Shown here in pieces: positions 11,452-26,808 of a DNA stretch of 64,000 nucleotides. The notes under the pieces are model-generated. The model did no database searches, was not told the DNA's origin, and saw only the letters and a list, made by a program, of their open reading frames with translations. How positions within the stretch are numbered: the stretch's first letter is position 1; each line of letters opens with the position of its first letter. The DNA is taken from NCBI GenBank assembly GCA_039033415.1, contig JBCCCR010000022.1, positions 29,579 through 93,578 on the forward strand. Reading direction: 5' to 3'. The position numbers and the translations under genes are program-made. The DNA is from Pseudomonadota bacterium (lineage in GTDB: Bacteria > Pseudomonadota > Gammaproteobacteria > Xanthomonadales > SZUA-38).

Positions 11452-11692
11452 GCCGACGCTCCTTCCTGGATGCGGTGAGTGTGCCCTGATGACCAGGCGA
11501 TTGCACTTATCGACAACCCCTTAAGTGCAACTGATCCAGGGATTAAGTTGTCTACACTGGGGACGGCGCCTGACTCTCCCGCGTTCGGGCTGAGCGACGC
11601 CACAGGAAAAACGGCCTAAATCCAGAGGTTCGGCAGGTTTTCTCAACCTCCTGCGCCTTGCCTGGCCCACGGACTCGTTCTACTCTTTGCTT

Positions 11693-13222
11693 ATGACACC
11701 AGTGTCCACGCGTCATTCTTTATGCTTCAGTCTGCTGCTTGCGGTCGCGCTGAGCGGCGCAACCCCGTTTGCCGGCGCCCAAACTTTGCCCGAAACTGAG
11801 GCGGCTACCGCCCCGCAGGACGCTCAGTCCAGCGCTGAAGCATCCAACCTTCCGGCCGCTGCTGCGGACGACGTCACGCCCTCACCGGGCGTTGTAGAAG
11901 CTGAGCTCGACGACGAAGAGCAGGCGATGTACGACGAGCTGACCGGGACGGACTCATCCAAGCGGGAGTCGAAGTTCGGCCAAATCGGCGACCTGCGTGT
12001 CGACCGTTACGAGGCTCGCCAGGTATTCATCAACTACATGCGGTCTGAGGAGTATCCGCAGGCGATTGACGCCGCGGCGACCGGGCTTGAGCTGACCCGC
12101 ACCGAGCTCGGTGAAGGTCATCTCGAAACCGTGCCCTATATCAATGATCTCGGCAACGCGCTCCTGCGCAACGGTCAGCCTGGCGAGGCGCGCATCCAGT
12201 TTGAAAAGAGCGTCAACCTCCTGCGCGAAAAGGCGGGCATCTTCAGCACCGAGCTGGTGGAGCCTCTGATCGGCATGGGCCTGGCGTTCCAGGATATGTC
12301 TGAGCACGACCAGGCGATCGATACCTTCAACTACGCGCAGCACGTGACCCACCGGGATCAGGGTGTCTACAACCTCGATCAGATTCGCATTATTGAAGCC
12401 ACCGCCAGCAGCTTTGCGGCACAGGAGCAGTGGCTGCAGGCGGAAAACCTGCACCTCCTGGCCTACAAGCTCTACAAGCGCAACTACGGCGTCGACAGCG
12501 AGGACGCGCTGCCGGGCCTTTACCGACTCGCCCGCTGGTATCAGCAGGTACAGGACTATCGCCAGGCGCGGGTGGTATACCGCAAAGCGATGGCCAGCAT
12601 CGCCGAGATTCACGGCGAGCGTTCGCCCAAGCTGATTCCGCCGTTGAAAGGTATTGCCGGGGCTTATCTCGAAGAGAACGGTCCGGACGCGATCAAAGGG
12701 CTCCGCGCCTCCGAAGACATTCTGGACATCATGAACGACAACCCCCAGGAGTTCAGCATGGAGCAGCGCATCCTGGCGCACCTGGAGATGGGTGACTGGT
12801 TTGTGCAGTTCAATCGGTCCGATGACGCCTGGGGGCAATATCGGGCCGGCTGGGAGCTGGCCCAGACCGATGGGGAAAGCGGCCGCGACTGGTCGCAGTA
12901 TTTCGACCGGCCGCACCTGATCTACCCCGGCGCCCGGCTGGGTCTTGAGGTGATTGGCTACGGCCGGGTCGGCGATGAGGTTTACTACGACTTCCAGTTT
13001 ACGATCGCCCGCAGCGGCCGACCCGAAGATATCGAAATTATCGGCACCAACCTTCACGGACAGACCCGATCGGTCGCGCTGCAGGCGTTTCGCTTTGCGC
13101 GGTTCCGGCCCCGCATCGTTGATGGTGCGACGGTGGCCACGCCGGGCTACAAGGTCCGCCGGGTTTATCCCACCGACGCGCCCCCCGGCTACGGCACGGC
13201 GGACGTTGGGCAGCGTGGCTAG
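11693..13222 (+). CDS. secreted TPR-repeat protein with a TonB-C-terminal-like domain
   Basis: Signal peptide 'LLLAVALSGATPFAGAQ', then TPR-like helical repeats. The C-terminus 'VYYDFQFTIARSGRPEDIEIIG...ALQAFRFARFRPRIVDG' follows the TonB_C pattern. The start is moved to ATG 11693 because the track start is TTG 11687. Confidence 0.65.
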   Translation: MTPVSTRHSLCFSLLLAVALSGATPFAGAQTLPETEAATAPQDAQSSAEASNLPAAAADDVTPSPGVVEAELDDEEQAMYDELTGTDSSKRESKFGQIGDLRVDRYEARQVFINYMRSEEYPQAIDAAATGLELTRTELGEGHLETVPYINDLGNALLRNGQPGEARIQFEKSVNLLREKAGIFSTELVEPLIGMGLAFQDMSEHDQAIDTFNYAQHVTHRDQGVYNLDQIRIIEATASSFAAQEQWLQAENLHLLAYKLYKRNYGVDSEDALPGLYRLARWYQQVQDYRQARVVYRKAMASIAEIHGERSPKLIPPLKGIAGAYLEENGPDAIKGLRASEDILDIMNDNPQEFSMEQRILAHLEMGDWFVQFNRSDDAWGQYRAGWELAQTDGESGRDWSQYFDRPHLIYPGARLGLEVIGYGRVGDEVYYDFQFTIARSGRPEDIEIIGTNLHGQTRSVALQAFRFARFRPRIVDGATVATPGYKVRRVYPTDAPPGYGTADVGQRG

Positions 13223-13346: not shown

Positions 13347-14003
13347 TTAACCTGCCAGAATGTCACCGAGCTGCTGGCCAAGACTCTTGCACGACGCGTT
13401 CTTGGTCCGGGCAATCAGCGGCAGCGGCACACCCAAAGCGGGCACCACCGACGTGCCGGTGGCCTCCGTGCTGATGATGCCCATGGGCTCGCCGGCCTGG
13501 ATATCCCAGATGGACGCTTCATAGTTGGAGTTGTTGTCCCAGCTCAAGACCCCGAGACAGCCACCGCCGGCCGGGCTGAGCGTACAGGTCATCACCCCCT
13601 GCTTGTTGCGGGCCTCCGACTCGCCGTGGATCCACACCAGGTAGCGGACGTTGAGGTCTTCCACTCGCTTGGCGATGACCGGCTCTTCGAGCAGCACGTT
13701 CACCAGCTCCGCCCGGGTGGGCGCCAGCCGCGGCTCAAACCAGGGAAACATCTCGTCTTTGAAGCGGTTCTCGCTGATGATATTGACGTCACCGGCCCGG
13801 GATCGGAGCTGGCCGAAGAGGCACTCGGAGAAGCTGTCTTCGGTCTCGATCACAGCGTCCTGGCGATTGGTGAGGATCACCACCGACTCGTCGCCGCTCA
13901 TATCCAGATCGGTTTGCATAAACTCTTCCACGCGCGCCGTGACGCAACCCGACAGCGCGACCGTCAGCGCGGCCGTGACACCCAGTCGAAAACCTGGATT
14001 CAT
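13347..14003 (-). CDS. hypothetical lipoprotein
   Basis: Lipobox 'ALSGC' after 'MNPGFRLGVTAALTV'. ATG 14003 forms an ATGA overlap with the upstream lipoprotein gene stop. Confidence 0.7.
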   Translation of the reverse strand: MNPGFRLGVTAALTVALSGCVTARVEEFMQTDLDMSGDESVVILTNRQDAVIETEDSFSECLFGQLRSRAGDVNIISENRFKDEMFPWFEPRLAPTRAELVNVLLEEPVIAKRVEDLNVRYLVWIHGESEARNKQGVMTCTLSPAGGGCLGVLSWDNNSNYEASIWDIQAGEPMGIISTEATGTSVVPALGVPLPLIARTKNASCKSLGQQLGDILAG

Positions 14004-14638
14004 GGTGAACTTACCTCGTTTGGTGGCAGCGGCGTGCGCCACTGCTGCTTTTCAACAACGCCTTTGAACTGGCTGACCATGGCGGCGGCGGCATCGCGCA
14101 GTGCGAGCGTCGTCGCCTCGCCGAGTGACTGGTTGCCGTTAACAAACCGCTTGCGGTCTTTGCCGTAGGCGACAAATGGCCAGTACCCCACAATGGTGCC
14201 CTGGTCGGAATAGAGCCGGATCTGATACTTCATCGAGACGGCGTAAAAGTTGGTGGCGGTCTCAGCGGGCGACAGAAACGCATATTCTTCGAGGACCGGT
14301 TCGAGCACAAGGTCGACGCCATAGCTGGAGTTGTCCTGATCTGGGCTGGGTACCGCGATGGTCTGCTCGAACAGCGCGCCGAAGATTTTGTCGTACACCG
14401 CCTGCTGTTTGGTGCCCAGCTCGAAGGTCAGCTTGCCTTCCTCTTCGGTGTAAACGTACTGGCTGAACTGCGGGCTGTAATAGATGCCGGCGCTGAAGGG
14501 CAGGGGCTGCACAACCGGCTCAGGAAACTCCTGCTCGATGACCACCGTGCCGGCGCAGCCGGCGAGGGTCAAAGCCATTAGCAGGGCGAACAACAGACGG
14601 ATGGGACGCCGCTCTCGGCGTTGCGGATGGATCCTCAC
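14000..14638 (-). CDS. hypothetical lipoprotein
   Basis: 'LLFALLMALTLAGC' lipobox. GTG start. Translationally coupled to the downstream lipoprotein gene. Confidence 0.7.
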   Translation of the reverse strand: MRIHPQRRERRPIRLLFALLMALTLAGCAGTVVIEQEFPEPVVQPLPFSAGIYYSPQFSQYVYTEEEGKLTFELGTKQQAVYDKIFGALFEQTIAVPSPDQDNSSYGVDLVLEPVLEEYAFLSPAETATNFYAVSMKYQIRLYSDQGTIVGYWPFVAYGKDRKRFVNGNQSLGEATTLALRDAAAAMVSQFKGVVEKQQWRTPLPPNEVSSP

Positions 14639-14876
14639 GGGTGGGCTGTCCCTGTCGATTTGCTCATGCTGCTGCGTGGCCTCATCTGAAAGTGACCGCT
14701 CGTCGGGCGAAAAGGTTGCATTTAAGTCTACACCTAAGCACCACGAAGCGCTCCGTACAGTAAAAGTATCGCGTTACCCGTCGTAAGGCCGTGAATTGGC
14801 GGGAAATCGCCCACAGCCACTACGAAGCTTTTAGTATTTTGCTGAGCGGCCCTGCGTCTTGCAACTATTTGGCGAT

Positions 14877-14882
14877 TATAAT
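14877..14882 (+). promoter_or_regulatory. perfect -10 hexamer TATAAT upstream of the nine-gene operon (no convincing -35)
   Basis: Consensus TATAAT in a GC-rich divergent intergenic region, 49 nt upstream of ATG 14931. The nearest TTGCAA (14859-64) is only 12 nt away, which is non-canonical spacing. Confidence 0.3.
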
Positions 14883-14930
14883 GGTCTGGTACATAGCGCA
14901 AACGCGACACGACCCGTGGAGAGCAACACC

Positions 14931-16097
14931 ATGAAGCAGCCGGTGCAAAACCTGTCTAGGACGTTGGGAACGCCTTTGGCGAACCCCGTAGCTACGCCTG
15001 CACGCTGGCTCCCGGTGTGTTTGCTGGCGCTGGCCGCCGGGTGCGCCAGCCAGAGCCAAATGCAGCAGCAGCAAATGCCGCAGATGCCGTCTCCTTCGGC
15101 CTCCCCGCCGTCGCCACCGTCGATGCCGTCGTCGTCGCCGAGCATGCCGTCGCCCTCGCCGAGCATGCCGACCCCGAGTATGCCGTCACCCAGCATGCCA
15201 ACACCGTCGATGCCAACACCTTCGGGCGCCCCTTCTTCACCGAGTCCAGAGCAGTCGCCAAGTGCCCAGCCGCCGGGTTCCAGCAGCCCGAGTGAAGCCG
15301 GCGCGGAGTCGCAGGCGAACGCCGAGTCGAGCGCGGCTGGCGGTACCAGCGAGCTGGAAGTCTTAGAGCCGGAAGAGTCCGAAGCGTCCGCGGATGCGAG
15401 CGCTGAGCCCACCTGGGACGAAGGAGAAAGCGGTGGCGAAGAGTCGCTCGCCGACGCCTCCGAGAGCTCGGCGGGTGGCGGTGCATCGGGCGGCGAAGAG
15501 TCGCTGGAAGAAGAATCACTCGCTGAGGCCGGTGAAGCCGGTGCCAGCGGCGGCGCGCCGGGCGGCGGCGACCCCACCAGCGGCGAGATGGCTGCCGCCA
15601 CCGGCGGCATGCCGGGCGGCGCTTCACCGGCGGGTACGGAGCAGTCGCTTGAGGCGGAGCTGAATAGTTCGCTCGAGATCTTCGAAGGTGAAATGGAACG
15701 CACCATCACCATCCTGGCCTCCAATGACGATGCTGACGGCGATGCGCAGGGCGCCGCCGGCGGCAACGGCGGCGAAGAGGAAGAGGGTGGGCTGTTTGAT
15801 CAGACGGGTGCCGGCGCTGAGCTGGTGCTGGTAAACGGCGATCCCTCGCTGCTGCCGGGTAGTTCCCAGGACGTGGATGGTGAGACGGGCGACGAACCGA
15901 TCACCGGCCGGCCCGGGCTGGAAGGCGGGGGTACGGCCAACGAAACTTATCCTCGCGTACCGGGCGATGTGGGTGACGGCCTGGACGACGACGTGGTCGC
16001 GCGTCAGATTCGTGAAGCAGCGATCAACGAAGACGACCCGTCGCTGCGTGAGAAGCTGTGGGAAGAGTACCGCAACTACAAAAAATCCATTCAATGA
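14931..16097 (+). CDS. lipoprotein with Pro/Ser/Met tandem repeats and a long polyacidic, low-complexity region
   Basis: Lipobox 'LALAAGC', then 'PSMPSSSPSMPSPSPSMPTPSMPSPSMPTPSMPTPS', then about 250 aa rich in E/D/G/S/A. The C-terminus 'DDVVARQIREAAINEDDPSLREKLWEEYRNYKK' looks more ordered. Start at ATG 14931 with GGAGA 8 nt upstream (the track start is TTG 14859). Confidence 0.7.
   Translation: MKQPVQNLSRTLGTPLANPVATPARWLPVCLLALAAGCASQSQMQQQQMPQMPSPSASPPSPPSMPSSSPSMPSPSPSMPTPSMPSPSMPTPSMPTPSGAPSSPSPEQSPSAQPPGSSSPSEAGAESQANAESSAAGGTSELEVLEPEESEASADASAEPTWDEGESGGEESLADASESSAGGGASGGEESLEEESLAEAGEAGASGGAPGGGDPTSGEMAAATGGMPGGASPAGTEQSLEAELNSSLEIFEGEMERTITILASNDDADGDAQGAAGGNGGEEEEGGLFDQTGAGAELVLVNGDPSLLPGSSQDVDGETGDEPITGRPGLEGGGTANETYPRVPGDVGDGLDDDVVARQIREAAINEDDPSLREKLWEEYRNYKKSIQ
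15069..15225 (+). repeat. imperfect in-frame tandem repeat (15-21 nt units containing 'ATGCC(G/A)') encoding (P-S-M-P-S/T)n
   Basis: 'atgcc' recurs at 15075, 15084, 15123, 15144, 15165, 15180, 15195 and 15210. The last four are spaced exactly 15 nt apart. Confidence 0.75.
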
Positions 16098-16105
16098 GGA
16101 ACGTC

Positions 16106-17311
16106 ATGTCAAGGATCGTTTCAGTGACCGTTGTGCTGGCCCTTGCGGCTGCCCTGTCCGCTTGCACCACCGCCACGGTGAAAACCGTTAACTCGGTTCA
16201 AATCGACAAAGCCGATCAGGAGCTGGCTCAGGATCAGCTGCTGGATGTGGGTCTGCAGATTTTTAATCCGGGCATACCCGCCGACCAGGAAGACCGGGAA
16301 GACGACAACATCTATCCGGCCGTCCGCCGGGCTGAGGCTCGCTACGTCCCTTACCTGCTGCGGACCACGCTCGAGGAGTCTAACCAATGGGGGGCGGTGC
16401 GGGTGCTGCCGGGTGAAGACCCGGCCTCTGAGGTCACCGTCACCGGCGAGATTCTCCACTCCGACGGCGTGGTGCTGGAGGTGCGCGTCACCGCCACCGA
16501 CGCCACCGGGCGCACCTGGTTGGATAAGAAGTACGCTGACCTGGCGACCCAGTTTGCCTATCGCGACGACGTGGAGTACGACGGCGATGCGTTTCAGGAT
16601 CTGTACAACCTGGTCGCCAACGATCTGCGCAAGGCGCGCGACGAGCTGAGCCGTGAGGAGCTCAAGGAGATCCGCACCGTGGCCAATCTGCGCTACGCGG
16701 CGGAGGTGGCGCCGGACGCGTTCGGCAACCACCTGACCGAAGATCGCAACGGAGACGTGGTCATAAACCGCCTGCCCGCGTACGACGATCCGATGATGCG
16801 CCGCGTGGCCCGCATCCGGGAGAGTGAGTACCTGTTTATCGATACGGTCGATCAGCAGTACGCGGTGTTTTATCAGCAGATGGATCCCAGCTACGACCAG
16901 TGGCGTCGATACTCCTACGAGGAGACGCTGGCCGAAGAAGACATCAAGCGCTCCGCCCGGACCCGTATGCTCGCCGGCCTGCTGGGTGTGGTGGGTGGCG
17001 CGGCCATCTCGTCCAACGCCAACGGCAACTGGGCCCAGAACAGTATCGGCAACGCTGCCGCGCTGGGCGGCCTATACGCCCTGAAGCAGAGCTACGACAC
17101 CTATCAGGAAGCCAAGATCCACCAGGAGGCGCTCAAAGAACTCGCCGCGTCGTTCGACGCTGAGGTCAAGCCGATTGTGCTGGAGGTGGAAGGTGAGGTC
17201 GTGAAACTCAACGGCACCCTCGACGCGCAGTACCAGGAATGGCGTCGGCTGATGCGGGAGATCTACGAAGCCGAGACCGGCATACCCGTAGCGGACGCGG
17301 TTCCGCAATAA
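16106..17311 (+). CDS. hypothetical lipoprotein
   Basis: 'VVLALAAALSAC' lipobox. ATG 16106 has GAGGA 5 nt upstream. The in-frame ATG 16094 (ATGA overlap with the upstream stop) is an alternative start. Confidence 0.7.
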   Translation: MSRIVSVTVVLALAAALSACTTATVKTVNSVQIDKADQELAQDQLLDVGLQIFNPGIPADQEDREDDNIYPAVRRAEARYVPYLLRTTLEESNQWGAVRVLPGEDPASEVTVTGEILHSDGVVLEVRVTATDATGRTWLDKKYADLATQFAYRDDVEYDGDAFQDLYNLVANDLRKARDELSREELKEIRTVANLRYAAEVAPDAFGNHLTEDRNGDVVINRLPAYDDPMMRRVARIRESEYLFIDTVDQQYAVFYQQMDPSYDQWRRYSYEETLAEEDIKRSARTRMLAGLLGVVGGAAISSNANGNWAQNSIGNAAALGGLYALKQSYDTYQEAKIHQEALKELAASFDAEVKPIVLEVEGEVVKLNGTLDAQYQEWRRLMREIYEAETGIPVADAVPQ

Positions 17312-17322
17312 GCGACGACCCC

Positions 17323-19545
17323 ATGCCCACTGATCCGACAACGCTGGAACAGTTCAGCGACCGGCAGCCTTTGCCTGGCGCGAGCGGAAATAGCCTGCTC
17401 GCGAACCTGGACGGCGCACCGGTCCGGCTGCGACGGCTGCCGCTGACACCCGACGCGGTGACGGCGGCCCGGCAGCAGCTGGCGGCTGCGGCCGGCATCA
17501 GCCATCCAGCGATTGTGCCGGACAGCGGTCTGCTGGTGCAGGACGGTGAGGTTTGGGTATGGCGGCCGGAGCTGGAAGGTGAGGCCCCCGTCAGCGACGA
17601 CCAGGAACAGCGGCTGGCGTTCGCCCAGCGCACCTGTGAAGCGCTGGGGCTGATTCATCGAGCGGGCTTTGCGCATGGCGCGGTGGACGGCATACACCTC
17701 ATCATGACGCCCGCGGACGGCCTGAAGCTCGTCGATCCGACGCTCGACGCCGCAGCGACACCCACCCAGGACATGCAGGCACTCGGACGCGTGCTGTTTG
17801 AGTGGGAGACGGGGCAGAGCGCCCAAAATCTTCAGCAGCCGGAGCTGGCCGCCGCGCTCACGCGGCAAGCGGCCCAGCGGCCGCTACCGCCTCGTCTGGC
17901 GCGTCTGATCCTGCAGCTGCTATCCGAAGAACCGCCGGCCGCAACGCTGGCGGCTGAAGACCTCGAGGACATCCGGCTGAGTCTCGCCCGAGCGGATGCC
18001 CAGGTGCAGGCGCACTGGCAAACCGAATCGTATGAGCCGGTCAAAGCCGTCAAGGGCTCGACACCCTCGATTAGCCCGGTGCAACCCGCCGCGCAGCCAC
18101 AATCGAAGGCGCCAGCTTTTATCGCTACCGCCGCCGCCTGCGTGCTGCTGCTGGCGATTGTATTTGTCGTTGGCGTCCTGCCCGACCGGGTTGCCCCCGA
18201 ACCCGAGCGCGTCGCTGAGACCGCGGCCGCTGCGCCCGAGCCGGCAGCGCCCGAACCGCCGCCGCCGGCGGCGGCGCCGCTGAGTCAGGCTGACCTTGAG
18301 CGTCTGCTGCGCCAGCGTGAGTCGGCTCAGGCGGTGCTGGACGAGCTGATCAATCTCCAGCTGGAGCTGGAGGAGCAGCAGGTGGAACGCTGGGCCGAAC
18401 GGCGGTTTGGTGAGGCGCGCGATCTGGCCGCGTCCGGCGATGAGCCGTTTCGCGAGCAGCAGTTCGAGCTCGCGGAAAAGATTTATGCCGATGCGTTTCA
18501 GGAGATGCAGGCTGTTGCAGCGCTTCGTCCCATCATTGTGGCCGAGGCGCTGGAGCGAGGACGTTACGCGTTCGACCGGGGCAACGCGGCGGACGCGAGC
18601 GACGCCTACTCGCTGGCGCTGGCGATCGATCCGGAAAACGAGCAGGCCAAGATCGGTAAAGCCCGGTCCGAAACGCTGGATCGGGTCAAAGCGCTGATGG
18701 CGGACGTCATGGAGGCGCGCGACGAGCTCCGCCTCAGCGACGCCCTGTCGCTGCTAGACCAGGTGCTGGCACTCGACCCCCTGACCGAAGAAGCGGTCGG
18801 GCTCAAAAGTGAACTGCAAACCGAGCTGGCTGACGCGCGCTTTCGCAACGCGATGTCGGACGGGCTGGCCGCGCTGTCGGCAGGCCGCTGGCAGGAGGCG
18901 CGCACGGCGCTGAATCGGGCCGCCAAGCTTGAGCCGGCCAACCGCGCGCCGAAAGACGCGCTGATCGAACTGGAGCGGCGGCAGCGCGATGCGCTGGTCG
19001 CCCGCGATATTGGCAAAGCCCGCACGGCGCAGGATCAGGAGCGCTGGGAAGCGGCCATCAAACACTTCGACGATATCTTAAAGCGCGACCCCAACTCGCG
19101 GGTGGCCCAGGAAGGGCGTGCCCAGGCGGTTGAGCGGCAGGATCTGGACCAGCGGCTCACCTCGCTGCTGCGAGACCCGGCCCAGCTCTGGTCCAACGAG
19201 GGCCGCTCGACGGCGCGTTCGTTGCTTTACGACGCGCGGGCGATCGAGGGTCCTGGCCCGCGGCTGCGCGACCAGCTCGTCCGCCTCGACCAACAGATCG
19301 ACCTTGCGGCGCGGCCGCAGCCGGTGACGCTGGTGTCCGACAACGCCTGCAACGTGGTGGTCTATAAGGTCGCGCGCCTCGGGCAGTTCGACCGGCACCA
19401 GCTTGAGCTGCTGCCCGGCCGCTATACGGCGGTCGGCACGCGCGACGGCTACCGCGATGTCCGCGTCGAATTTATGGTCCCGGCCGACCAGGCGCCGCAG
19501 CCGGTCTCGCTGCGCTGCGAAGAACAGGTCCTGGCGCGAGGCTAA
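17323..19545 (+). CDS. Hanks-kinase-like (apparently catalytically dead) domain - TM helix - coiled coil/TPR repeats - PEGA-like C-terminus
   Basis: Kinase-like blocks 'ISHPAIV', 'LGLIHRAGFAHGAVDGIHLIM', 'LKLVDPTL' and 'ALGRVLFEWETG'. TM helix 'FIATAAACVLLLAIVFVVGVL'. At least 4 TPR-like units ('..ALAIDPENEQA..', '..LALDPLTEEA..', '..AKLEPANRAP..', '..ILKRDPNSRVA..'). Start at ATG 17323. Confidence 0.7.
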   Translation: MPTDPTTLEQFSDRQPLPGASGNSLLANLDGAPVRLRRLPLTPDAVTAARQQLAAAAGISHPAIVPDSGLLVQDGEVWVWRPELEGEAPVSDDQEQRLAFAQRTCEALGLIHRAGFAHGAVDGIHLIMTPADGLKLVDPTLDAAATPTQDMQALGRVLFEWETGQSAQNLQQPELAAALTRQAAQRPLPPRLARLILQLLSEEPPAATLAAEDLEDIRLSLARADAQVQAHWQTESYEPVKAVKGSTPSISPVQPAAQPQSKAPAFIATAAACVLLLAIVFVVGVLPDRVAPEPERVAETAAAAPEPAAPEPPPPAAAPLSQADLERLLRQRESAQAVLDELINLQLELEEQQVERWAERRFGEARDLAASGDEPFREQQFELAEKIYADAFQEMQAVAALRPIIVAEALERGRYAFDRGNAADASDAYSLALAIDPENEQAKIGKARSETLDRVKALMADVMEARDELRLSDALSLLDQVLALDPLTEEAVGLKSELQTELADARFRNAMSDGLAALSAGRWQEARTALNRAAKLEPANRAPKDALIELERRQRDALVARDIGKARTAQDQERWEAAIKHFDDILKRDPNSRVAQEGRAQAVERQDLDQRLTSLLRDPAQLWSNEGRSTARSLLYDARAIEGPGPRLRDQLVRLDQQIDLAARPQPVTLVSDNACNVVVYKVARLGQFDRHQLELLPGRYTAVGTRDGYRDVRVEFMVPADQAPQPVSLRCEEQVLARG

Positions 19546-19604
19546 GTGATGACCAGGAGCAGTGACATCCCCACAGAGAACGCCGGCACGGCGAGGAGCG
19601 GCGC

Positions 19605-21722
19605 ATGAGCGACCTGAAAACGCCCGCGCAGCAGAGCTCGGGTGACGATCACTTTGAGGTCATCACGCCGACCGACTTTCAGCCGGCGGCGGCGACCACC
19701 AGCCGCGGCATTGGCGGCGTGTCGTGGTGGACCGTCGGCAGCTTCGCGCTGCTCGGACTGGTGGCGGGCTGTGCCCTATACCTCTTCACCGCGCGCTCGG
19801 TCCTGATCGACATCGCGCCGGCCCCCGACTCGATGGAGCTGGACGGGGCGCTGCTGTTTCCGCTGAAGCTCGGCGAGCGGTGGCTGCTGCACCCTGGCGG
19901 CTACACGGTGGAGGCGACCCTCGAGGGCTATCATCCGCTCAAGACCGACTTTGCCGTGCTGTCGGAAGACGGCCAGCAGTTTGCCTTCACCATGGACAAG
20001 CTGCCTGGACTGCTCAGCGTGACGGCCGGTGACGTGCCCGGTGCCCACGTCTGGGTGGACGGTCAGCCGCTGAGCCCCGCGCCGCTCAGCCAGCACGAGC
20101 TGGAACCCGGCACCTATCAGCTGACGGTGCGCGCGCCCCGCTATCGCGACTTCGACCAGACCATCGACATCGAGGGCAAGCAGATCGAGCAGACCGTTGC
20201 GGCGGTCCTCGAGCCCGCCTGGGCCGACGTTCAGCTGACGAGCACCCCGGCCGGGGCCACGCTTTACGTGGACGGCGATCCGGTGGGGGAAACGCCGCTG
20301 ACGGCGCAGATCCTCGAAGGCGAACGCGACCTGTCGCTGCAGCTTGAGGGCTACAAAGATTGGGCCACCGGCCTCACCCTGACCGCCGGCGCTGAGCTGG
20401 CGCTGCCGACGGTGGAGCTGACGCCGGCTGACACCCTGGTCACCGTGGCCAGCACCCCTAGCGGTGCCAGCGTGACCGTGGAAGGCGAGTATCGCGGACA
20501 AACGCCGCTGCGGCTGGCGCTGGCGCCGGGCCGTTCTTACCGCATGGGCTTCACTCGGGCTGGCTACCAGTCGCGGCAGCGCGTCGTGGACGTGGCTGAG
20601 GGTGATGACACCCGGCTCAACATCCGGCTTCAGCCAATCCTCGGGGTTGTGCAGATGGCGGGTGAACCCGAAGATGCCGAGGTTTATGTCGACGGCGTAT
20701 TCCAGGGCCGGCTGAACGACCGCTTCGAGCTGGCGGCGCATCCGCAGCGCATCGAGGTGCGGCGCGAGGGCTATCAGCCTTACAGCACCACCGTGACGCC
20801 GAGCCCAAACCAGGAGCAGCTGCTGAACGTGGAGCTCACCAGTTTCGCGGACGCGGCGGCTGAGGCCAATCCAGACACCCTGGTGACCAGCACCGGCTAT
20901 GAGCTCAAGCTGATCCGGCCCAGCGGCGTGTATCGCCTGGGCAGCCCGCGGCGCGAGCAGGGTCGGCGCTCCAACGAATTCATCCGCCAGGTCCAGCTGG
21001 AGAAGCCGTTTTATCTCGGCACCCGGGAAGTGACCAACCTTCAGTTTAAGGCGTTCAGCTCGAGCCACGACTCCGGCATCGCGAGCACCAACAGCCTGAG
21101 CCTGAAGGATCAGCCGGTGGTGCGGATCAGCTGGGATCAGGCTGCGCGGTTCTGTAACTGGCTCAGCGCCAAAGAAGGCCTGCCCGCGGCTTATCAGGAG
21201 AGCAATGGCGTGATGGTGCCGGTCACTCCGATGACCATCGGCTATCGGCTGCCCAGCGAAGCGGAGTGGGCTTATGCTGCCCGCTATGGCGGCGGCTCCC
21301 AGTCCGCGCGCAAATATCCGTGGGGTGAGCAGATGCCGCCGCCGGGCGCCGCCGGCAACTTTGCCGGCACGGAGTCCAGCAGTGAGGTGGAGCGCGGCCT
21401 GTCGAACTACACCGACGAATATCCCGTCAGCGCGCCGGTGGCGCGTTACGGCAGCAGCTCGCTGGGGCTGCACGATCTGGGTGGCAACGTGCACGAGTGG
21501 ATTCACGACTACTACCTGATCAGCAGCAGCGGCCTCGGCAAATCGCCGCTCGATCCGCTGGGCGCGGCGGAAGGCAACAATCACGTGATCCGCGGCTCCA
21601 GCTGGCGCAGCGGCAGCATCACGGAGCTACGTTTGGCCTGGCGCGACCAGGGCTCCGGCGGCAAGGACGACATCGGCTTCCGCGTGGCGCGCTACATCGA
21701 CCAGGGCGGAGGAACGCCATGA
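19605..21722 (+). CDS. TM-anchored protein with about 5 PEGA-like repeats and a C-terminal FGE/SUMF1-type (formylglycine-generating-enzyme-like) domain
   Basis: TM helix 'WWTVGSFALLGLVAGCALYLF'. PEGA-like units such as 'TSTPAGATLYVDGDPVGETP...LEGYKDW' and 'ASTPSGASVTVEGEYRGQTP...RAGYQS'. FGE-like blocks 'VTNLQFKAF', 'ISWDQAARFCNWLS', 'YRLPSEAEWAYAARYG', 'GNVHEWIHD' and 'VIRGSSWRS'. GAGGAG SD 7 nt upstream. Confidence 0.8.
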   Translation: MSDLKTPAQQSSGDDHFEVITPTDFQPAAATTSRGIGGVSWWTVGSFALLGLVAGCALYLFTARSVLIDIAPAPDSMELDGALLFPLKLGERWLLHPGGYTVEATLEGYHPLKTDFAVLSEDGQQFAFTMDKLPGLLSVTAGDVPGAHVWVDGQPLSPAPLSQHELEPGTYQLTVRAPRYRDFDQTIDIEGKQIEQTVAAVLEPAWADVQLTSTPAGATLYVDGDPVGETPLTAQILEGERDLSLQLEGYKDWATGLTLTAGAELALPTVELTPADTLVTVASTPSGASVTVEGEYRGQTPLRLALAPGRSYRMGFTRAGYQSRQRVVDVAEGDDTRLNIRLQPILGVVQMAGEPEDAEVYVDGVFQGRLNDRFELAAHPQRIEVRREGYQPYSTTVTPSPNQEQLLNVELTSFADAAAEANPDTLVTSTGYELKLIRPSGVYRLGSPRREQGRRSNEFIRQVQLEKPFYLGTREVTNLQFKAFSSSHDSGIASTNSLSLKDQPVVRISWDQAARFCNWLSAKEGLPAAYQESNGVMVPVTPMTIGYRLPSEAEWAYAARYGGGSQSARKYPWGEQMPPPGAAGNFAGTESSSEVERGLSNYTDEYPVSAPVARYGSSSLGLHDLGGNVHEWIHDYYLISSSGLGKSPLDPLGAAEGNNHVIRGSSWRSGSITELRLAWRDQGSGGKDDIGFRVARYIDQGGGTP

Positions 21723-22042
21723 ACCAAAATGCCTTAAAGATCATGCTGGCTATGCTGCTCGGTCTCGGCCTTACAGGGCTGGCGGCCGGTCAGGCTGACG
21801 ACGCCGCCGACAAGTCGGAGACGGCCGAGGAGGCCAACGAATCCGCCGCGGAGTTCGACCCCGCGGTATGCCAGGAGCCGCCGGCGGAAGGGGAGACCCT
21901 ACCGTCCGAATGCGCGGAGCTGGCGGGCGAAGGGCCTACCAACGACGTCGACGCGGGTGAAATGCGCGCCACGATGCGTCGCTTCGTCCCGAGCGAACAA
22001 ATCTCGGAAGACAGCTCAGTGGCGTTTCCCAACGACATCTGA
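21719..22042 (+). CDS. small secreted acidic protein (107 aa)
   Basis: ATG 21719 overlaps the upstream stop (ATGA). Signal peptide 'MNQNALKIMLAMLLGLGLTGLAAG', then a D/E-rich region with 2 Cys. The track ORF starting at 21497 is an upstream extension that overlaps the FGE-like gene. Confidence 0.6.
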   Translation: MNQNALKIMLAMLLGLGLTGLAAGQADDAADKSETAEEANESAAEFDPAVCQEPPAEGETLPSECAELAGEGPTNDVDAGEMRATMRRFVPSEQISEDSSVAFPNDI

Positions 22043-22104
22043 GCTGACTGCGAGCCTCATTTAAGTATTGATACCCAAGCGGTTTTTATAGGAATAAGAT
22101 CAAC

Positions 22105-22932
22105 ATGGACGGTACTGTCAGGACACCCACAACGATGAAAAAAGGTTTCCCGGTTGAGTTTGTGTTTCAGCTTTTTGCGCTGCTCGTGTCGGTGCTGATT
22201 GTGCATACCGTGTACGTCACGGTGGTGCGCCCGGCGGCCGCTGAGGTGATGCAGGCGCAGACGCAGGCGATCGCAGAAGACCCCAACTACGTGCCGGAGC
22301 GATCCGTTTACGTTCTGATCCGGGACTTTGAGCAGGAGGCCTGTTTTGTGCTGCTGTTCTGGGCGCTGGCGATTATGGCCTACAAAGCCTATCGGGGTTT
22401 GCGGGAGCGCCGGCTGCTCGAACAGGTGCTTATGCCCGTCGGCGACGGCATCAGTATCCTGCCGGAAGACACGCGCGAATACTCGCGCCCACTGCAGGCG
22501 CTGCCCGATCAGGAGCGCCGCTTTCTATTGCCCAAGGTGCTGCTGACGGCGCTGCACCGCTTTCGCTCCACGCGGGACATCCAGAGCGTGGCGACCACGG
22601 TGCGCGAGCTCTGTGAGCAGGAGGCGGAGCGCCTCGAATCGGAGCTCTCGATGGTGCGCTACATCGCCTGGGCGATTCCCTCCATTGGATTTATCGGCAC
22701 CGTGCGCGGGATCGGTGAAGCGCTGGCGCAGGCCCACAAGGCCGTGGAGGGTGACATCACCGGCGTCACGGACTCGCTAGGCGTGGCGTTTAACTCCACG
22801 TTTATTGCGCTGGTCCTGAGTATCTTTCTGATGTTTCTGATGCACCAGCTCCAGCTGATGCAGGAGCGCCTGTCGCTGGACGCGCAGGACTACGCCGAAG
22901 AAAACCTGATCGGGAAGCTGCGTGAGTCGTAA
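22105..22932 (+). CDS. MotA/TolQ/ExbB-family proton-channel protein
   Basis: N-terminal TM helix, a long cytoplasmic segment, then a TM2/TM3 pair 'YIAWAIPSIGFIGTVRGIGEAL' ... 'GVAFNSTFIALVLSIFLMFLMHQ'. This mirrors the ExbB/TolQ '..P.(L/I)G(L/F).GTV.GI' signature. Confidence 0.8.
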   Translation: MDGTVRTPTTMKKGFPVEFVFQLFALLVSVLIVHTVYVTVVRPAAAEVMQAQTQAIAEDPNYVPERSVYVLIRDFEQEACFVLLFWALAIMAYKAYRGLRERRLLEQVLMPVGDGISILPEDTREYSRPLQALPDQERRFLLPKVLLTALHRFRSTRDIQSVATTVRELCEQEAERLESELSMVRYIAWAIPSIGFIGTVRGIGEALAQAHKAVEGDITGVTDSLGVAFNSTFIALVLSIFLMFLMHQLQLMQERLSLDAQDYAEENLIGKLRES

Positions 22933-22974
22933 GCTCGCCAGCAGCAGTGTCTCCAACCGCGGGGTGAGCCGCCC

Positions 22975-24357
22975 GTGATCGGCGTTGTCGAACTCAATGA
23001 CGCCGGCCTGCTGGTAGCGGCTGACGGCACCGAGCTGCTGGAGAGCCCGGGCTACCTGGCGTTTGAAGGCAAAAACCTTCATGTCGGGGCGGCCGCGGCG
23101 CAGCGCGTCAAGCTGATCCCCACGCAGACCCAGTACGCCTTCTGGGAATACTTTGCGAGCGAAACGCTCCCGACGGGCCAGCTGCCCCAGGCGGGCCTGA
23201 AACACGCGGATCTCGCCTATCGTCACCTGGAGCGCCTGTGGAGCATCGTCGGCAAGGACCTCAAGCAGCTGGTGCTGTGTGTACCGGCCGACTGGGGCCG
23301 GGCGGAGCTCGGTCTGCTGCTGGGGATCTGCCAGACGCTCAAGATTCCCGTGCGCGCGCTGGTCAATGTGGCGCTGGCGGCCAGCGCGATGCCCCAGCCC
23401 GGGCGTACGCTGATGCACCTGGACATCCATCTGCACCGGCTGGTGCTGAGCACGCTGGACCAGGGGCCGTGGCTGTCGCAGGCGGCGGTTGAGAGCACCC
23501 GAGAGGTGGGCCTGCTGCGGCTGCTCGACGGCTGGGCGTTTGCAGCGGCCGGCGCGTTTGTGCAGGCCACCCGCTTTGACCCGCTCCACCAGGCGCAGAC
23601 CGAGCAGCAGCTGTTCGATCGGCTGCCGGCGTGGCTGGCGGCGGCAAGCGGGCGCCGCCAGCTGTCGCTCAGCGTAGATCACAACGGCAATACGGTTGAG
23701 GCGCGGGCGCCTTCACAAATCTTCCGGGATGCCGCGGAACCCCTGTATCGCCGCATGGCGGAATTTGTCGGCTCACACCTTGCCGGCGTTGACCCGGTGT
23801 CGCTGGTGATCAGCCCGCGGCTTGCGGTTCTGCCGGGTGTCAGCGAGGAGCTGGCCGCGCTGCCGAACGTCCAGCTGATTCCGGGCGGACGGCTGGACTT
23901 CGCCGGCGTGCTGAATCGACTGTACCTGCCGCGGGACGCCGGCAAGGGTGGTGCGGTGAACGTCACCCGCATCCCCTGGTTCAAATCGGAGGACCAGGCG
24001 AGCCATGAGGCGCCGGGCAGCGCCCGCGCTTCGGCCCCGACCCATCTGCTCCACGAGCACACCGCCTACCGGCTGGCGGCGGGACAGCCGTTTGTAGTCG
24101 GCGCTGGCGTCCAGCAAAACGATGGGCTGAAGCTGGGCGGGGGCGGCGTGGGTGAGCGGCACTTCAGGCTGCGCCAGGAAAGTACCGGTTGGCTGCTGGA
24201 GGATCTGTCCGGCGGCGCCACCCGCATCAACGGCGAGCCGCTGGAGGGCCGCCGACCGGTTTCCGCCGGGGACCGCATCCAGCTTGGCAACCCGGCCCAG
24301 GAGCTGATCCTCATCGCCGAAGCCGCCACCGTGAGGTCTCCCAGTGCCGCGTCGTAA
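22975..24357 (+). CDS. cytoplasmic Hsp70/actin-like (ASKHA-fold-like, degenerate) protein with a C-terminal FHA-like domain
   Basis: The N-terminal region parallels Hsp70 blocks: 'IGVVELNDAGLLVAA' vs 'IGIDLGTTNS', 'LVLCVPADWGRAELGLLLGICQTLKIPVRALVNVALAASA' vs 'AVITVPAYFND..AG..V.RIINEPTAAALA', and 'LMHLDIHLHRLVLS' vs 'VLVFDLGGGTFDVS'. The C-terminus 'ERHFRLRQESTGWLLEDLSGGATRINGEPLEGRRPVSAGDRIQLG' is FHA-like. GTG start. Confidence 0.6.
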   Translation: MIGVVELNDAGLLVAADGTELLESPGYLAFEGKNLHVGAAAAQRVKLIPTQTQYAFWEYFASETLPTGQLPQAGLKHADLAYRHLERLWSIVGKDLKQLVLCVPADWGRAELGLLLGICQTLKIPVRALVNVALAASAMPQPGRTLMHLDIHLHRLVLSTLDQGPWLSQAAVESTREVGLLRLLDGWAFAAAGAFVQATRFDPLHQAQTEQQLFDRLPAWLAAASGRRQLSLSVDHNGNTVEARAPSQIFRDAAEPLYRRMAEFVGSHLAGVDPVSLVISPRLAVLPGVSEELAALPNVQLIPGGRLDFAGVLNRLYLPRDAGKGGAVNVTRIPWFKSEDQASHEAPGSARASAPTHLLHEHTAYRLAAGQPFVVGAGVQQNDGLKLGGGGVGERHFRLRQESTGWLLEDLSGGATRINGEPLEGRRPVSAGDRIQLGNPAQELILIAEAATVRSPSAAS

Positions 24358-25435
24358 GCGCCAATTTAACGCCTTCAACCTGTCGTTTCTGGACATCATG
24401 TCCTGCGGCTTCGGCGCGGTGATCCTGTTTTTTGTGATCATCAATCACGCCCAGGACGAGCGGAACGACGACCTGACGGCGGACCTCTCCGGTGAGGTCA
24501 ACCTGGTGGAAACCGAGCTCAAGCTGGAGCAGCTGAACCTGGCGAAACTGCAGAACGCGCTGACGGAGGTCGAAGAGGAGATCGTGACGGCCCAGGGGGC
24601 TTCCGATCGTCTGCTGTCCGAGGTGGACGACACCGAGAAGGAGCTGTCGGAGCAGGACGCGGAGACCGCCGCCAAGCGCGAGCATATGAACCAGCTCATC
24701 ACCGATCTGAAGGCGCTGGAAAAGGAGCGCGACCGGCTACAGCAGCTCGAGACCGAAGGTGGCGAGAGCGTTCGCAGCTACACCGGCGAAGGTGACCGGC
24801 AGTACCTGACCGGGCTTCGGGTTGGCGGCCGGCGAATTGCCATCTTTGTGGACGCGTCAGCCTCCATGCTGGACGAGACGATCGTCAACGTGATCCGGCG
24901 CCGCAACCTGCCGGACGAGCAAAAGCTGCGGGCGGACAAGTGGCAGCGGGTTGTTCGGACCGTTGACTGGATTACGACGCAGGTGCCGGAAAACGCGCAG
25001 TTTCAGGTGTATACCTTCAATACCAAGGCCACGCCGGCGCTCGAGGGCACCGACGGCCAGTGGCTGGACGTGGAAAAAGGGCGCCGCCTGGATGAGGCGG
25101 TGGACCGGATTCGCAGCATCATTCCCACCGGCGGCACGCGGCTTCACTCGGTCACTGAAACCATCAACCGGATGAATCCACTGCCGGACAACGTGTTTCT
25201 GCTGGTGGACGGGTTGCCGACCCAGGGGCTGAATCCGGCCACCAAACGCGGCACCGTCACGTCCCGAGAGCGGGAGCGGTTTTTTTACGACGCCACCGCC
25301 GACCTGCCGATCGGCGTGCCGGTCAACACGATCCTGTTTCCCATGGAGGGTGATCCGAAGGCCGCCAGCGGCTTCTGGCGCCTGGCGATCCTCAGCGGCG
25401 GCTCGTTCATCACGCCCGCGAAGGACTGGCCATGA
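24344..25435 (+). CDS. ExbD/TolR/MotB-like TM helix (Asp17) - about 90-aa coiled coil - vWA domain protein, paralog 1
   Basis: 'MPRRKRQFNAFNLSFLDIMSCGFGAVILFFVII' has a basic N-terminus and a TM helix with Asp (codon 24392-94). Heptad-rich segment at about aa 45-137. vWA domain with MIDAS 'DASAS' (aa 170-174). GTG start has GAGG 7 nt upstream and a 14-nt overlap with the upstream gene. Confidence 0.75.
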   Translation: MPRRKRQFNAFNLSFLDIMSCGFGAVILFFVIINHAQDERNDDLTADLSGEVNLVETELKLEQLNLAKLQNALTEVEEEIVTAQGASDRLLSEVDDTEKELSEQDAETAAKREHMNQLITDLKALEKERDRLQQLETEGGESVRSYTGEGDRQYLTGLRVGGRRIAIFVDASASMLDETIVNVIRRRNLPDEQKLRADKWQRVVRTVDWITTQVPENAQFQVYTFNTKATPALEGTDGQWLDVEKGRRLDEAVDRIRSIIPTGGTRLHSVTETINRMNPLPDNVFLLVDGLPTQGLNPATKRGTVTSRERERFFYDATADLPIGVPVNTILFPMEGDPKAASGFWRLAILSGGSFITPAKDWP

Positions 25436-26430
25436 GCCGGCGTAAGCGCACCGTTGAGCAGGTCAGCCTGTCGTTCCTCGACTGCATCTGCTGTGGTTTC
25501 GGCGCCATCATTTTGCTGCTGGTGATCGTGAAAACGGCCGAGCCGATGATCATCGAGGAAACCCGCGAAGACTTAAGCGGGCTCCTGGCGGATCTGCAGG
25601 AGCAGCTGGTGCAAATCCGCGGCGAGACCACGGTACTGAACCGCGATCTGCAAACCAAAGAGGAACAGCTCTCGGAGGTTGAGGACAGCATCGCGCGCCT
25701 GCGGATGCTGCTGTCGACCCTCAAATCCGAGTTTGACTCCTCTTCCGATCAGAGTGACGCCATCACGGCGATCGAAAACCAGCTCAGCCGAGCCCGTCAG
25801 CAGCTCAACGAGATGCAGCGGCGGCTGAACTATTCCCGGGCGCTCGAAGACACCACGGTGGGTGGTATCCCGGTGGACAGCGAATACGTGATCTTTGTGA
25901 TCGACACCTCCGGCAGTATGCGCAACTTCGGCTGGGACCTCCTGCTGGATAAGATCATTGAGACCCTCGACGTTTACCCGGAAGTGAAGGGCATCCAGGT
26001 GCTCAACGACATGGGGGAATACATGTTCTCGCGCTATGCCGAGCGCTGGATTCCCGACTCGCCCGGGCGTCGTCGGGCGATCATCGATCGGATGAAAACC
26101 TGGAGCGCGTTTTCCAACTCCAGCCCCGTCGAGGGGATCACCAAGGCGATTGCCCGCTTCTACAAGCCGGGGCAAAAAATCAGCGTCTACGTTTTTGGCG
26201 ACGACTTTTCGGGCCGCTCCATCGCCCGCGTGATCGAGACGATCGACAAAATCAACCGTGAAGACGCTGAGGGCAACCGCCTGGTGCGGATCCACACGGT
26301 CGGCTTCCCGGTGTGGTTCACCGCGCCCCGCTCCCAGCAGGCATCGGTGGAGCGCTTTGCCACCCTGATGCGCCTGCTGGCGGAAAAAAATGGCGGAACC
26401 TTTGTCGGATTGAATTCTCACCAGCCGTAG
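25432..26430 (+). CDS. ExbD/TolR/MotB-like TM helix (Asp17) - coiled coil - vWA domain protein, paralog 2
   Basis: 'MSRRKRTVEQVSLSFLDCICCGFGAIILLLVIV' (Asp codon 25480-82). Coiled coil at about aa 45-133. vWA domain with MIDAS 'DTSGS' (aa 158-162). ATGA overlap with paralog 1. Confidence 0.75.
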   Translation: MSRRKRTVEQVSLSFLDCICCGFGAIILLLVIVKTAEPMIIEETREDLSGLLADLQEQLVQIRGETTVLNRDLQTKEEQLSEVEDSIARLRMLLSTLKSEFDSSSDQSDAITAIENQLSRARQQLNEMQRRLNYSRALEDTTVGGIPVDSEYVIFVIDTSGSMRNFGWDLLLDKIIETLDVYPEVKGIQVLNDMGEYMFSRYAERWIPDSPGRRRAIIDRMKTWSAFSNSSPVEGITKAIARFYKPGQKISVYVFGDDFSGRSIARVIETIDKINREDAEGNRLVRIHTVGFPVWFTAPRSQQASVERFATLMRLLAEKNGGTFVGLNSHQP

Positions 26431-26486
26431 TTCACGATACCCCTCGTTTTTCGTTCCCCCTTTTTTCTTAAACGGAGACTCACACC

Positions 26487-26765
26487 ATGAGCCGAGCATC
26501 TGCGCGCCACATTCTGGTGGCCACCGAAGCTGATTGTTTGAACCTGAAAAGTGAAATCGAAGGTGGCGCCGACTTTGCCGACGTCGCCCGCCAGCACTCC
26601 AGCTGCCCGTCGGGTCAGCAGGGTGGCAACCTGGGCGAGTTTGGCCCGGGTCAGATGGTGCCGGAGTTTGACCAGGTGGTGTTCAGCGCACCGGTCGGAG
26701 AGCTTCAGGGACCGGTCAAAACCCAGTTTGGTTACCACCTGCTCGAGGTCACCGAGCGCTCCTGA
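26487..26765 (+). CDS. ppiC: parvulin-type peptidyl-prolyl cis-trans isomerase C
   Basis: 92-aa protein. 'ARHILV...CPSGQQGGNLGEFGPGQMVPEFD...TQFGYHLLEV' matches PpiC over its full length. Confidence 0.9.
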   Translation: MSRASARHILVATEADCLNLKSEIEGGADFADVARQHSSCPSGQQGGNLGEFGPGQMVPEFDQVVFSAPVGELQGPVKTQFGYHLLEVTERS

Positions 26766-26808
26766 GCGTGACCAGATGCGTGGGCGCGGCATGTGGCCGC
26801 GCCCCGCC

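Follow-up and report, generated by a model that had tools for sequence, protein, structure and literature searches.

The closest described relatives of the system considered here are the TPH-vWA motors, a family predicted in Mol Biol Evol in 2025 (PMC12204202). TPH-vWA proteins carry a vWA domain tethered by a transmembrane (TM) helix, are mostly found as heterologous pairs, and co-occur tightly with a tolQ-like gene without tolR or exbD, and AlphaFold 3 (AF3) models place a TolR-like trans-pore helix with a conserved Asp inside a Thr ring of the channel (PMC12204202). The family is found in Proteobacteria and Verrucomicrobia, is read as a 5:2 motor, and has no function assigned to it; its description covers the channel and the two vWA genes only ('tolQ-like motor genes only') (PMC12204202). 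Here we describe a gene cluster in a 64,000-nucleotide stretch of DNA from a bacterium of the Pseudomonadota (the window; assembly GCA_039033415.1, contig JBCCCR010000022.1, positions 29,579 to 93,578 of the forward strand), in which a channel gene (g6) and two vWA genes (g8 and g9) of this kind stand within a larger set. An earlier note, made from the sequence alone, had proposed nine genes (g1 to g9) as an undescribed ion-driven trans-envelope machine centered on the channel. The cluster is a real unit of at least twelve genes (u1 to u3 and g1 to g9; Table 1), and we put the probability that its products build a machine that spans the envelope and runs on the proton (or other ion) gradient at roughly 0.6.

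The core formed by g6, g8, and g9 appears to fit the TPH-vWA family, the two being compared by described features. Both have a tolQ-like gene without adjacent tolR, exbD, or motB, two heterologous TM-anchored vWA genes, a TolR/ExbD-like trans-pore helix with an Asp and no SHLS motif, a Thr ring in the channel, and a distribution over Proteobacteria and Verrucomicrobia. The term 'undescribed' was wrong for the core, because a channel with paired TM-vWA proteins had already been predicted as TPH-vWA (PMC12204202). The cluster differs from the published family in adding at least nine conserved genes, including one for an Hsp70-fold/FHA protein (g7); to the extent that the literature could be searched, these accessory genes and the logic of their regulation are new, and no literature on the wider gene set was found beyond PMC12204202.

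The channel and its paired vWA proteins

The g6 protein belongs to the MotA_ExbB family (Pfam, 2.5e-15) and is the sole member of that family in the cluster; its only PDB sequence match is TolQ, and its invariant pore residues T189 and T222 align with TolQ T145 and T178. Its scores place it outside the named motor systems, with 32.9 for the TolQ equivalog against a cutoff of 221 (NCBIfam), 17.6 for the ExbB model against 135, and 12 bits for the MotA equivalog against 340, which sets the cluster apart from Tol-Pal, TonB-ExbBD, and MotAB/PomAB, respectively. There is no match to the ExbD, TolR, MotB, or OmpA families in any cluster protein (Pfam and NCBIfam), including an OmpA-like domain in g8 or g9, and no match to AAA+/MoxR or DUF58 in the cluster or its flanks, as would be expected of a Bat/MoxR-vWA system. 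With the comparisons to Zorya, Agl-Glt, and GldLM/PorLM given below, these results bear out the earlier note in separating the cluster from all seven of these systems. The profile libraries used were Pfam, NCBIfam, PADLOC, and Rfam.

The g8 and g9 proteins are paralogs with 23% identity, each with one TM helix that carries the motif SLSFLD..CGFGA, and both helices are of the ExbD/TolR-like trans-pore type, as had been proposed. The Asp of SLSFLD is invariant in 74 of 74 g8 and 69 of 70 g9 orthologs, and no His is present in the helix (approximately 70 orthologs each), hence there is no SHLS motif. In the g8 model (an AlphaFold2 monomer, as is that of g7, with folds searched by Foldseek), a single helix of ∼125 residues runs from residue 10 to residue 136 and is followed by a linker and a vWA fold (Foldseek matches at 2e-7). 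The DxSxS of the metal ion-dependent adhesion site (MIDAS) is invariant in both proteins (DTSGS in g9), as are the GT and D elements in g8. Although orthologs are only ∼45 to 55% identical, the spacing between the TM and MIDAS Asp residues varies only from 153 to 158 residues in g8 and from 141 to 144 in g9 (∼70 orthologs each), and both the offset (161 versus 145) and the g8/g9 orthology split are kept in Verrucomicrobia. The stalk of each protein is thus modeled as a helix of fixed length, ∼100 residues and ∼15 nm, and the constant spacing would fit an obligate, asymmetric heterodimer acting as a ruler.

A non-flagellar channel of the 5:2 type with accessory genes is also a property of Zorya-type anti-phage defense, in which a MotA-like/MotB-like membrane sensor of envelope damage during infection signals to cytoplasmic effectors, and g6 has weak matches to ZorA (PADLOC, 7.4e-5) and ZorA_4 (NCBIfam, 0.034). 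However, these matches are confined to the shared MotA_ExbB core (profile positions 33 to 128 of 505 for the PADLOC ZorA model), and g6, at 265 aa, has no long tail. No match to ZorB through ZorE was found: the cluster lacks an OmpA domain of the ZorB type and any nuclease or helicase like those of ZorC/D/E, and the other PADLOC matches are coiled-coil noise. The cluster has a stable housekeeping neighborhood (typA and ppiC) common to related genomes and is not on plasmids (no plasmid copy of g9 was found), its conservation is very strong (mean column identity of 77% across g6 orthologs), and most of its parts are periplasmic. A role in Zorya-type defense is accordingly very improbable.

Conservation and variation of the cluster

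Gene order was compared across 50 related loci with enough flank, using the eight detectable genes (g1 to g4 and g6 to g9). Order and strand agree for all eight in 47 of these, far above chance expectation, and the other three lack either g1 only or both g1 and g2, which agrees with the earlier description of a tightly packed envelope gene set centered on a channel of the MotA/ExbB/TolQ family. In a scan of one genome per species, relatives of g6 are present in at least 585 species among the matches listed; database homologs of g6 number >8000, the g8 family has 820 representatives at 50% identity (E <= 1e-10), and an exact-match lookup of g6 gave no match. The best 80 relatives are in Lysobacterales-like metagenome-assembled genomes (MAGs), Woeseiaceae (including cultured Lentisalinibacter), Azotimanducaceae/OM182, and other Pseudomonadales, and the window is nearly identical to MAG contig JBCDKA010000011.1. 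Many carriers (OM182/Azotimanducaceae and Woeseiaceae) are MAGs with a described marine or sediment origin.

Relatives of the cluster are also present in Verrucomicrobiota. In a Puniceicoccaceae locus, g2 and g3 have counterparts in a g2-like gene and in a g3-like TPR gene that lacks the kinase domain; the locus also has g4, a small gene, the channel gene, a g7-like gene, and distinct orthologs of g8 and g9, and a g2-like C terminus is recognizable in the Verrucomicrobial locus L086 (5e-11). The constant core across these variants consists of g8, g9, and a g7-like gene, to which the channel gene is usually adjacent. Where the channel gene is present, g7 always lies between it and the vWA pair, and a g3-like TPR protein accompanies the core in L086 and L087. 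In L085, the entire set stands as a single block that runs u2, g1, g2, g3, g4, a small gene, g7, g8, g9, and u3, with u1 on the opposite strand.

Two variant loci have further neighbors. In L087 (857 to 4558, − strand), which is of the Opitutaceae type without the PEGA/FGE gene, a tandem run of five small lipoprotein-like genes precedes the channel gene on its upstream side. A TYTVQVDAI motif is common to four of them, which are paralogs of ∼216 to 247 aa, and the fifth has a glycine-zipper domain. In L088, the g7-g8-g9 trio adjoins a gene for a 14,937-residue protein.

Upstream genes and the comparison with Tol-Pal and Ton

The nine-gene boundary of the earlier note was too narrow, and three genes upstream of it (11687 to 14638) belong to the cluster. 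In many genomes, u1, u2, and u3 are upstream and divergent as they are in the window, but u2 and u3 relocate with the cluster, and in L029, L080, and L083 they lie directly 3' of g9 on the same strand, in the order u3 and u2. Among 46 loci whose flanks are long enough, 23 have both u2 and u3 within 10 kb, and u1 is syntenic in many loci and in L085. Neither u2 nor u3 was detected within 10 kb in the Woeseiaceae loci, and statements of absence for g6, u1, u2, and u3 refer throughout to this distance around each locus.

The u1 protein contains TPR repeats (TPR_12, Pfam, 4.6e-24), and a profile of 17 orthologous u1 C termini matches the C-terminal domains of TonB2 (2k9k, 4.3e-12) and TonB (6i97, 1.5e-9). 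It has a cleavable signal peptide and not a membrane anchor, which is unusual for a protein with a TonB C-terminal domain.

These features raise the question of a specialized second Tol-Pal/Ton-like system, in which the vWA proteins would replace TolR and the motor would energize u1 and the lipoproteins, so as to stabilize or remodel the outer membrane, for instance during division. The cluster shares with Tol-Pal and TonB-ExbBD a channel of the TolQ/ExbB family with pore Thr residues (g6 being closest to TolQ), a partner helix with an essential Asp, a true TonB/TolA-type C-terminal domain (that of u1, whose TPRs are CpoB-like), one or more TPR proteins, and lipoproteins, of which the cluster has four. 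Idiomarina loihiensis, a species sampled for TPH-vWA gene clusters, also has a normal tol-pal locus listed in the supplement of that study (PMC12204202), and because of this listing the two appear to coexist as paralogous machines. However, the cluster has no TolR/ExbD periplasmic domain, no SHLS TM-anchored TolA or TonB, no TolB propeller, no OmpA-like Pal domain, and no TonB-dependent receptor. With its cleavable signal peptide and no SHLS TM helix, u1 would be unable to ride on the motor as TolA and TonB do, and the Woeseiaceae loci gave no sign of it within 10 kb. Nothing in Tol corresponds to the vWA stalks of fixed length, to the PorK-like protein g4, to the Hsp70-FHA protein, or to the kinase, and we regard a second Tol-Pal/Ton-like system as unlikely.

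Lipoproteins, g5, and the PorK-like protein g4

The cluster lipoproteins and g5 are without named families, and no Pfam or NCBIfam family was assigned to g1, g2, g5, u2, or u3 when these and 23 orthologs were scanned. The g1 protein (lipobox LAAGC) has short Pro/Ser/Met-rich tandem repeats and acidic tracts and is conserved only in its last ∼40 residues (DD.VARQIREAA..E.DP.LREKLWEEY), and g2 (lipobox LSAC) has a Gly/Ala-rich segment near residue 290. The g5 protein has a signal peptide, an acidic region, and a near-invariant C-terminal peptide, FVPSEQISEDSSVAFPNDI (21983 to 22042), which is formed by the last 19 residues of the protein and follows the pattern F-x-P-S-E-x-I-x-x-D-x-x-V-x-F-P-x-D-I. 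Counted on both strands of 89 sequences, this motif is present once each in 82 and is not found on reverse strands.

The g4 protein has one TM helix and no lipobox, with four PEGA matches (Pfam, 5e-50) and an FGE-sulfatase domain (4.5e-40). The best PDB match of the FGE-fold domain is the PorK/GldK ring protein of the type IX secretion system (T9SS) at 3e-16, with true formylglycine-generating enzyme (FGE) at 1e-13, and the best NCBIfam match is GldK (1.2e-26), below its cutoff. No Cys is present at the FGE active-site positions (RGSSWRSG...) in ∼71 orthologs, and by its residues the domain does not appear to be a formylglycine-generating enzyme.

The short cytoplasmic tail of g4 (beginning at 19605 and ending at 19730) has in nearly all orthologs a motif [IV]-x-P-[TSA]-x-F, here VITPTDF, 20 to 30 residues before the TM helix; this motif may serve to dock a partner in the cytoplasm. 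The Thr of this motif was considered as a phospho-acceptor marker tracking the status of the g3 kinase and was rejected, as it is conserved regardless of kinase status. In some Woeseiaceae, the N-terminal extension of g4 is longer and includes a SAYVT[KR]PPE segment that is conserved.

The likeness of g4 to PorK, its best solved relative, bears on whether the cluster codes for a surface-motility, adhesion, or secretion apparatus like T9SS/gliding (GldLM-PorKN) or Agl-Glt, with the motor driving movement or export of a surface adhesin. An ion-driven motor with a far-reaching dimeric periplasmic partner and a non-catalytic FGE-fold protein are common to the cluster and T9SS/gliding, and gliding has been suggested as one possible role of the related vWA family of SHLS type (PMC12204202). 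Agl-Glt has a TolQ-like pentamer with a heterodimeric AglQ/AglS plug, an FHA domain (GltG) predicted on the cytoplasmic motor face, TPR proteins, and a vWA adhesin, CglB (PMC11761067), and in these respects the proposed heterodimeric motor, with a putative FHA protein on its cytoplasmic face and with vWA domains, recalls it; the 14,937-residue protein beside the L088 trio is likewise in keeping with a surface apparatus. However, the Agl-Glt vWA domain is on an outer-membrane lipoprotein, its FHA domain is fused to a TonB-like TM protein, and the barrels GltA/B/H are required (PMC11761067), and all three are missing here, so that the likeness to the Myxococcus system is in logic only. The differences from T9SS/gliding are similarly broad: g6 is TolQ-like and not a GldL (match at 0.088), a coiled coil and vWA head stand in place of the GldM domains, and g4 is a PEGA-containing TM protein held in the inner membrane, unlike a ring subunit of lipoprotein type, with a score of 94 bits against the GldK cutoff of 350 that covers the FGE-fold half only. 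Scores are far below the GldK, GldJ, and GldL cutoffs, and no PorV is present. Neither the cluster nor its surroundings hold genes for GldL, GldM, PorN, SprA, a Glt barrel, or another secretion pore, its conserved companions include no pore or adhesin genes, and the vWA domains are tethered to the inner membrane and not surface-exposed. The OM182/Azotimanducaceae and Woeseiaceae carriers are not known to glide, and a motility, adhesion, or secretion apparatus of this type is doubtful indeed.

The kinase-like protein g3 and the Hsp70/FHA protein g7

The g3 protein has a kinase-like N terminus, a TM helix at residues 265 to 283, and TPR repeats (TPR_1/TPR_2, Pfam, ∼2e-8), followed by a conserved C-terminal domain that is only weakly PEGA-like (hhalign probability of 34% against the g4 PEGA region). 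In the window it reads VRLRRL, HGAVDGIH, and DPT, without the beta3 Lys, the catalytic Asp, the Asn, or the DFG, and as judged by these residues it is probably not an active Hanks-type Ser/Thr kinase. Orthologs such as those of L041, L053, and L082 have a canonical VALK, HRDxKxxN, and DFG, and a canonical VAIK/HRDxKxxN/DFG kinase is kept in many others, including many Woeseiaceae.

The g7 protein has no predicted TM helix. Its AlphaFold2 model has a predicted local distance difference test score of 91.5 and matches DnaK, BiP, and Ssz1 (Foldseek, ∼1e-18), and its C-terminal FHA domain matches the Ki-67 and Rad53 FHA domains in profile searches (∼1e-4). Family-wide, the loops ELNDAG, HLDIHLH, and SPRLAVLPG replace the Gly-rich phosphate-1, phosphate-2 (DxGGGT), and adenosine (GG.TR.P) loops of DnaK, and the Hsp70-fold domain would thus lack the residues of an Hsp70 ATPase. 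The FHA site is decayed in the window, with GERH and SGGAT against the canonical SRxH, SxxGT, and NG. The domain calls of the earlier note held for all nine genes when examined with Pfam, AlphaFold2, Foldseek, and profiles, with the PEGA likeness of the g3 C terminus being the weak one. Its statement that every enzyme-like module lacks catalytic residues is correct in the window (g3 kinase, g4 FGE, and g7 Hsp70-like domain) but not family-wide, as many orthologs have both a canonical kinase and a canonical FHA domain.

Orthologs with a canonical kinase always have a canonical FHA domain, and a decayed kinase is paired with a decayed FHA domain; over 63 loci, the kinase and FHA motif scores co-vary with a Spearman coefficient of 0.65, uncorrected for phylogeny. 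Verrucomicrobial loci have neither the kinase domain nor the FHA motifs. This co-variation and joint absence point to a putative phosphothreonine link between g3 and g7 that would have been lost, or never gained, in some lineages. A comparable arrangement is the type VI secretion system (T6SS) switch PpkA-Fha1-PppA, in which a membrane Ser/Thr kinase with a periplasmic sensor and a cytoplasmic FHA protein gate an envelope machine. The cluster shares the kinase and FHA pairing, here with co-varying motif sets, but has no T6SS genes and no identified phosphatase, its FHA domain is fused to an Hsp70-like fold, and both partners are degenerate in the window genome.

A model for the machine

The most likely mechanism for the proposed envelope-spanning machine is a proton-driven 5:2 motor in which envelope partners are pulled or turned by fixed-length stalks with MIDAS vWA heads. 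As in the homologous pairs TolQ-TolR, ExbB-ExbD, and MotA-MotB, and in the published AF3 model of TPH-vWA, five copies of g6 would form a TolQ-like ring in the inner membrane, with the N-terminal helices of one g8 and one g9, each with its invariant Asp, inserted in the ring pore. Ion flow at the Asp/Thr site would turn the g6 ring relative to the g8/g9 pair, and the stalks would carry the vWA heads to the outer periplasm, where they would grip acidic ligands. Candidate ligands are the g5 C-terminal peptide, the polyacidic g1, the PorK-like g4 head on its PEGA spacers, and the lipoproteins g2, u2, and u3, through which the cell wall or outer membrane would receive the motor work. Scaffolding would fall to the two TPR proteins of the periplasm, g3 and u1 (the latter with its TonB-type end domain). 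On the cytoplasmic side, g7 would dock on the complex, in a phosphothreonine-dependent manner where the g3 kinase is active; in the window genome, where kinase and FHA site are both degenerate, the contact would therefore be constitutive.

That the genes form one functional unit is supported by their shared order and strand, by overlapping or near-abutting genes, by the co-relocation of u2 and u3, and by the retention of g4, g6, g7, g8, and g9 with a g3-like TPR protein in Puniceicoccaceae; PorK as the best solved match counts for the periplasmic reach of g4. Several points weigh against the machine as proposed. No MotA/TolQ-like gene is present within 10 kb of g7-g8-g9 in L085 (Logan SRR19226369 contig, 9757 to 10004) or L088 (8482 to 12080), and a reduced form without g4 in Opitutaceae (Oleiharenicola and Lacunisphaera) means that the PorK-like protein is not universal. 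The cluster has no peptidoglycan-binding (OmpA-like) domain and no outer-membrane barrel, and the literature has no experimental work that we could find on any member. The correlation between kinase and FHA motifs reflects few independent clades only. The 5:2 stoichiometry, the g8/g9 heterodimer, and rotation are inferred by analogy with the known motors, and g5 and g1 are putative vWA-head ligands by acidity and conservation only.

A fuller proposal is that the twelve genes constitute a distinct and ancient ion-driven trans-envelope machine, one that would not belong with Tol-Pal, Ton, flagellar stators, T9SS, or Agl-Glt. A heterodimer of fixed-length stalks would be the rotor or axle, its metal-dependent vWA heads engaging a PorK-like periplasmic scaffold and acidic envelope proteins, and an ATPase-dead Hsp70-fold/FHA adaptor would read the cytoplasmic face, with control by Ser/Thr phosphorylation in some lineages. 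Its job would be a new one, neither nutrient import nor tethering of the outer membrane at the division site. We advance this proposal tentatively, and at a little under even odds.

Gene layout, flanks, and regulatory region

The coordinates of the cluster are given in Table 1. All nine + strand genes g1 to g9 and their junctions are exactly as the earlier note had them, with junctions of +8, +11, +59, −4 (ATGA), +62, +42, −14, and −4 (ATGA) from g1 to g9. Most g6 orthologs start at Met11 (265 aa), which would extend the g5-g6 gap to +92 nucleotides. The u2 and u3 genes overlap by ATGA and are translationally coupled.

Table 1. Features of the cluster (window positions)
Feature	Coordinates	Strand	Description
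u1	11687..13222	+	Secreted TPR protein, 511 aa, TonB C-terminal domain at end
u2	13347..14042	−	Lipoprotein, lipobox LSGC; likely true start 14003
u3	14000..14638	−	Lipoprotein, lipobox LAGC
Divergent intergenic region	14639..14930	no strand	Between u3 and g1; direct sequence reading
g1	14931..16097	+	Disordered Pro/Ser-repeat, polyacidic lipoprotein with conserved C-terminal helix of ~40 aa
g2	16106..17311	+	Lipoprotein, unnamed family
g3	17323..19545	+	Predicted cytoplasmic pseudokinase, one TM, periplasmic TPR, conserved C-terminal beta domain
g4	19605..21722	+	Short cytoplasmic tail, one TM, PEGA repeats, PorK/GldK-like FGE-fold domain
g5	21719..22042	+	Small secreted acidic protein with conserved C-terminal peptide
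g6	22105..22932	+	TolQ/ExbB/MotA-family channel subunit; likely real start 22135, 265 aa
g7	22975..24357	+	Cytoplasmic Hsp70 nucleotide-binding-domain fold and C-terminal FHA domain, degenerate in window genome
g8	24344..25435	+	Trans-pore helix, ~100-residue helical stalk, vWA domain with full MIDAS
g9	25432..26430	+	g8 paralog, stalk ~14 residues shorter

The cluster is flanked by typA/bipA (8684 to 10507) and ppiC (26487 to 26765), confirming the placement given for it before; the flanks also hold a patatin-like gene, with ordinary metabolic genes beyond ppiC, and no mobility genes are seen in the surroundings. A perfect TATAAT lies ∼45 nucleotides 5' of the g1 start codon (window 14859 to 14900), and GGAG precedes the g1 ATG. 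There is no good −35 element at standard spacing from the TATAAT, and a promoter consensus scan found 0 promoter-like sites, with no full sigma-70 site 5' of g1; the TATAAT region is a putative g1 promoter. Terminator-like sites are not more frequent than in shuffled sequences in the promoter/terminator scan, and an Rfam scan of 11000 to 27500 gave no match. Because the genes are tightly packed and their order is conserved, g1 to g9 are probably on a single transcript.

Two further genes lie downstream on the − strand. An FRG-domain gene (27509 to 28300), two genes downstream of the cluster, is kept there in the closest relatives (L002 to L006) and has no evident link to it. A 661-residue open reading frame (29115 to 31100) codes for an OmpR/PhoB-type winged helix (Trans_reg_C) and PD40/WD40-like beta-propeller repeats, an architecture like that of the CadC/ToxR-like membrane regulators.

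Implications

Only a handful of ion-driven 5:2 motors are understood (flagellar stators, Ton, Tol, T9SS/gliding, and Zorya), and this cluster would be another, with relatives in at least 585 species-level genomes and across two phyla. The parts list expands a three-gene prediction to a testable system, with candidate vWA ligands, a PorK-like scaffold, a protein with a TonB-type domain, and an Hsp70-fold/FHA adaptor. Cultured carriers available for genetics are Lentisalinibacter, Oleiharenicola lentus, Lacunisphaera limnophila, and a Puniceicoccaceae strain labeled K14, and the family itself offers a natural experiment, since kinase and FHA site are kept together in some lineages and have decayed together in others.

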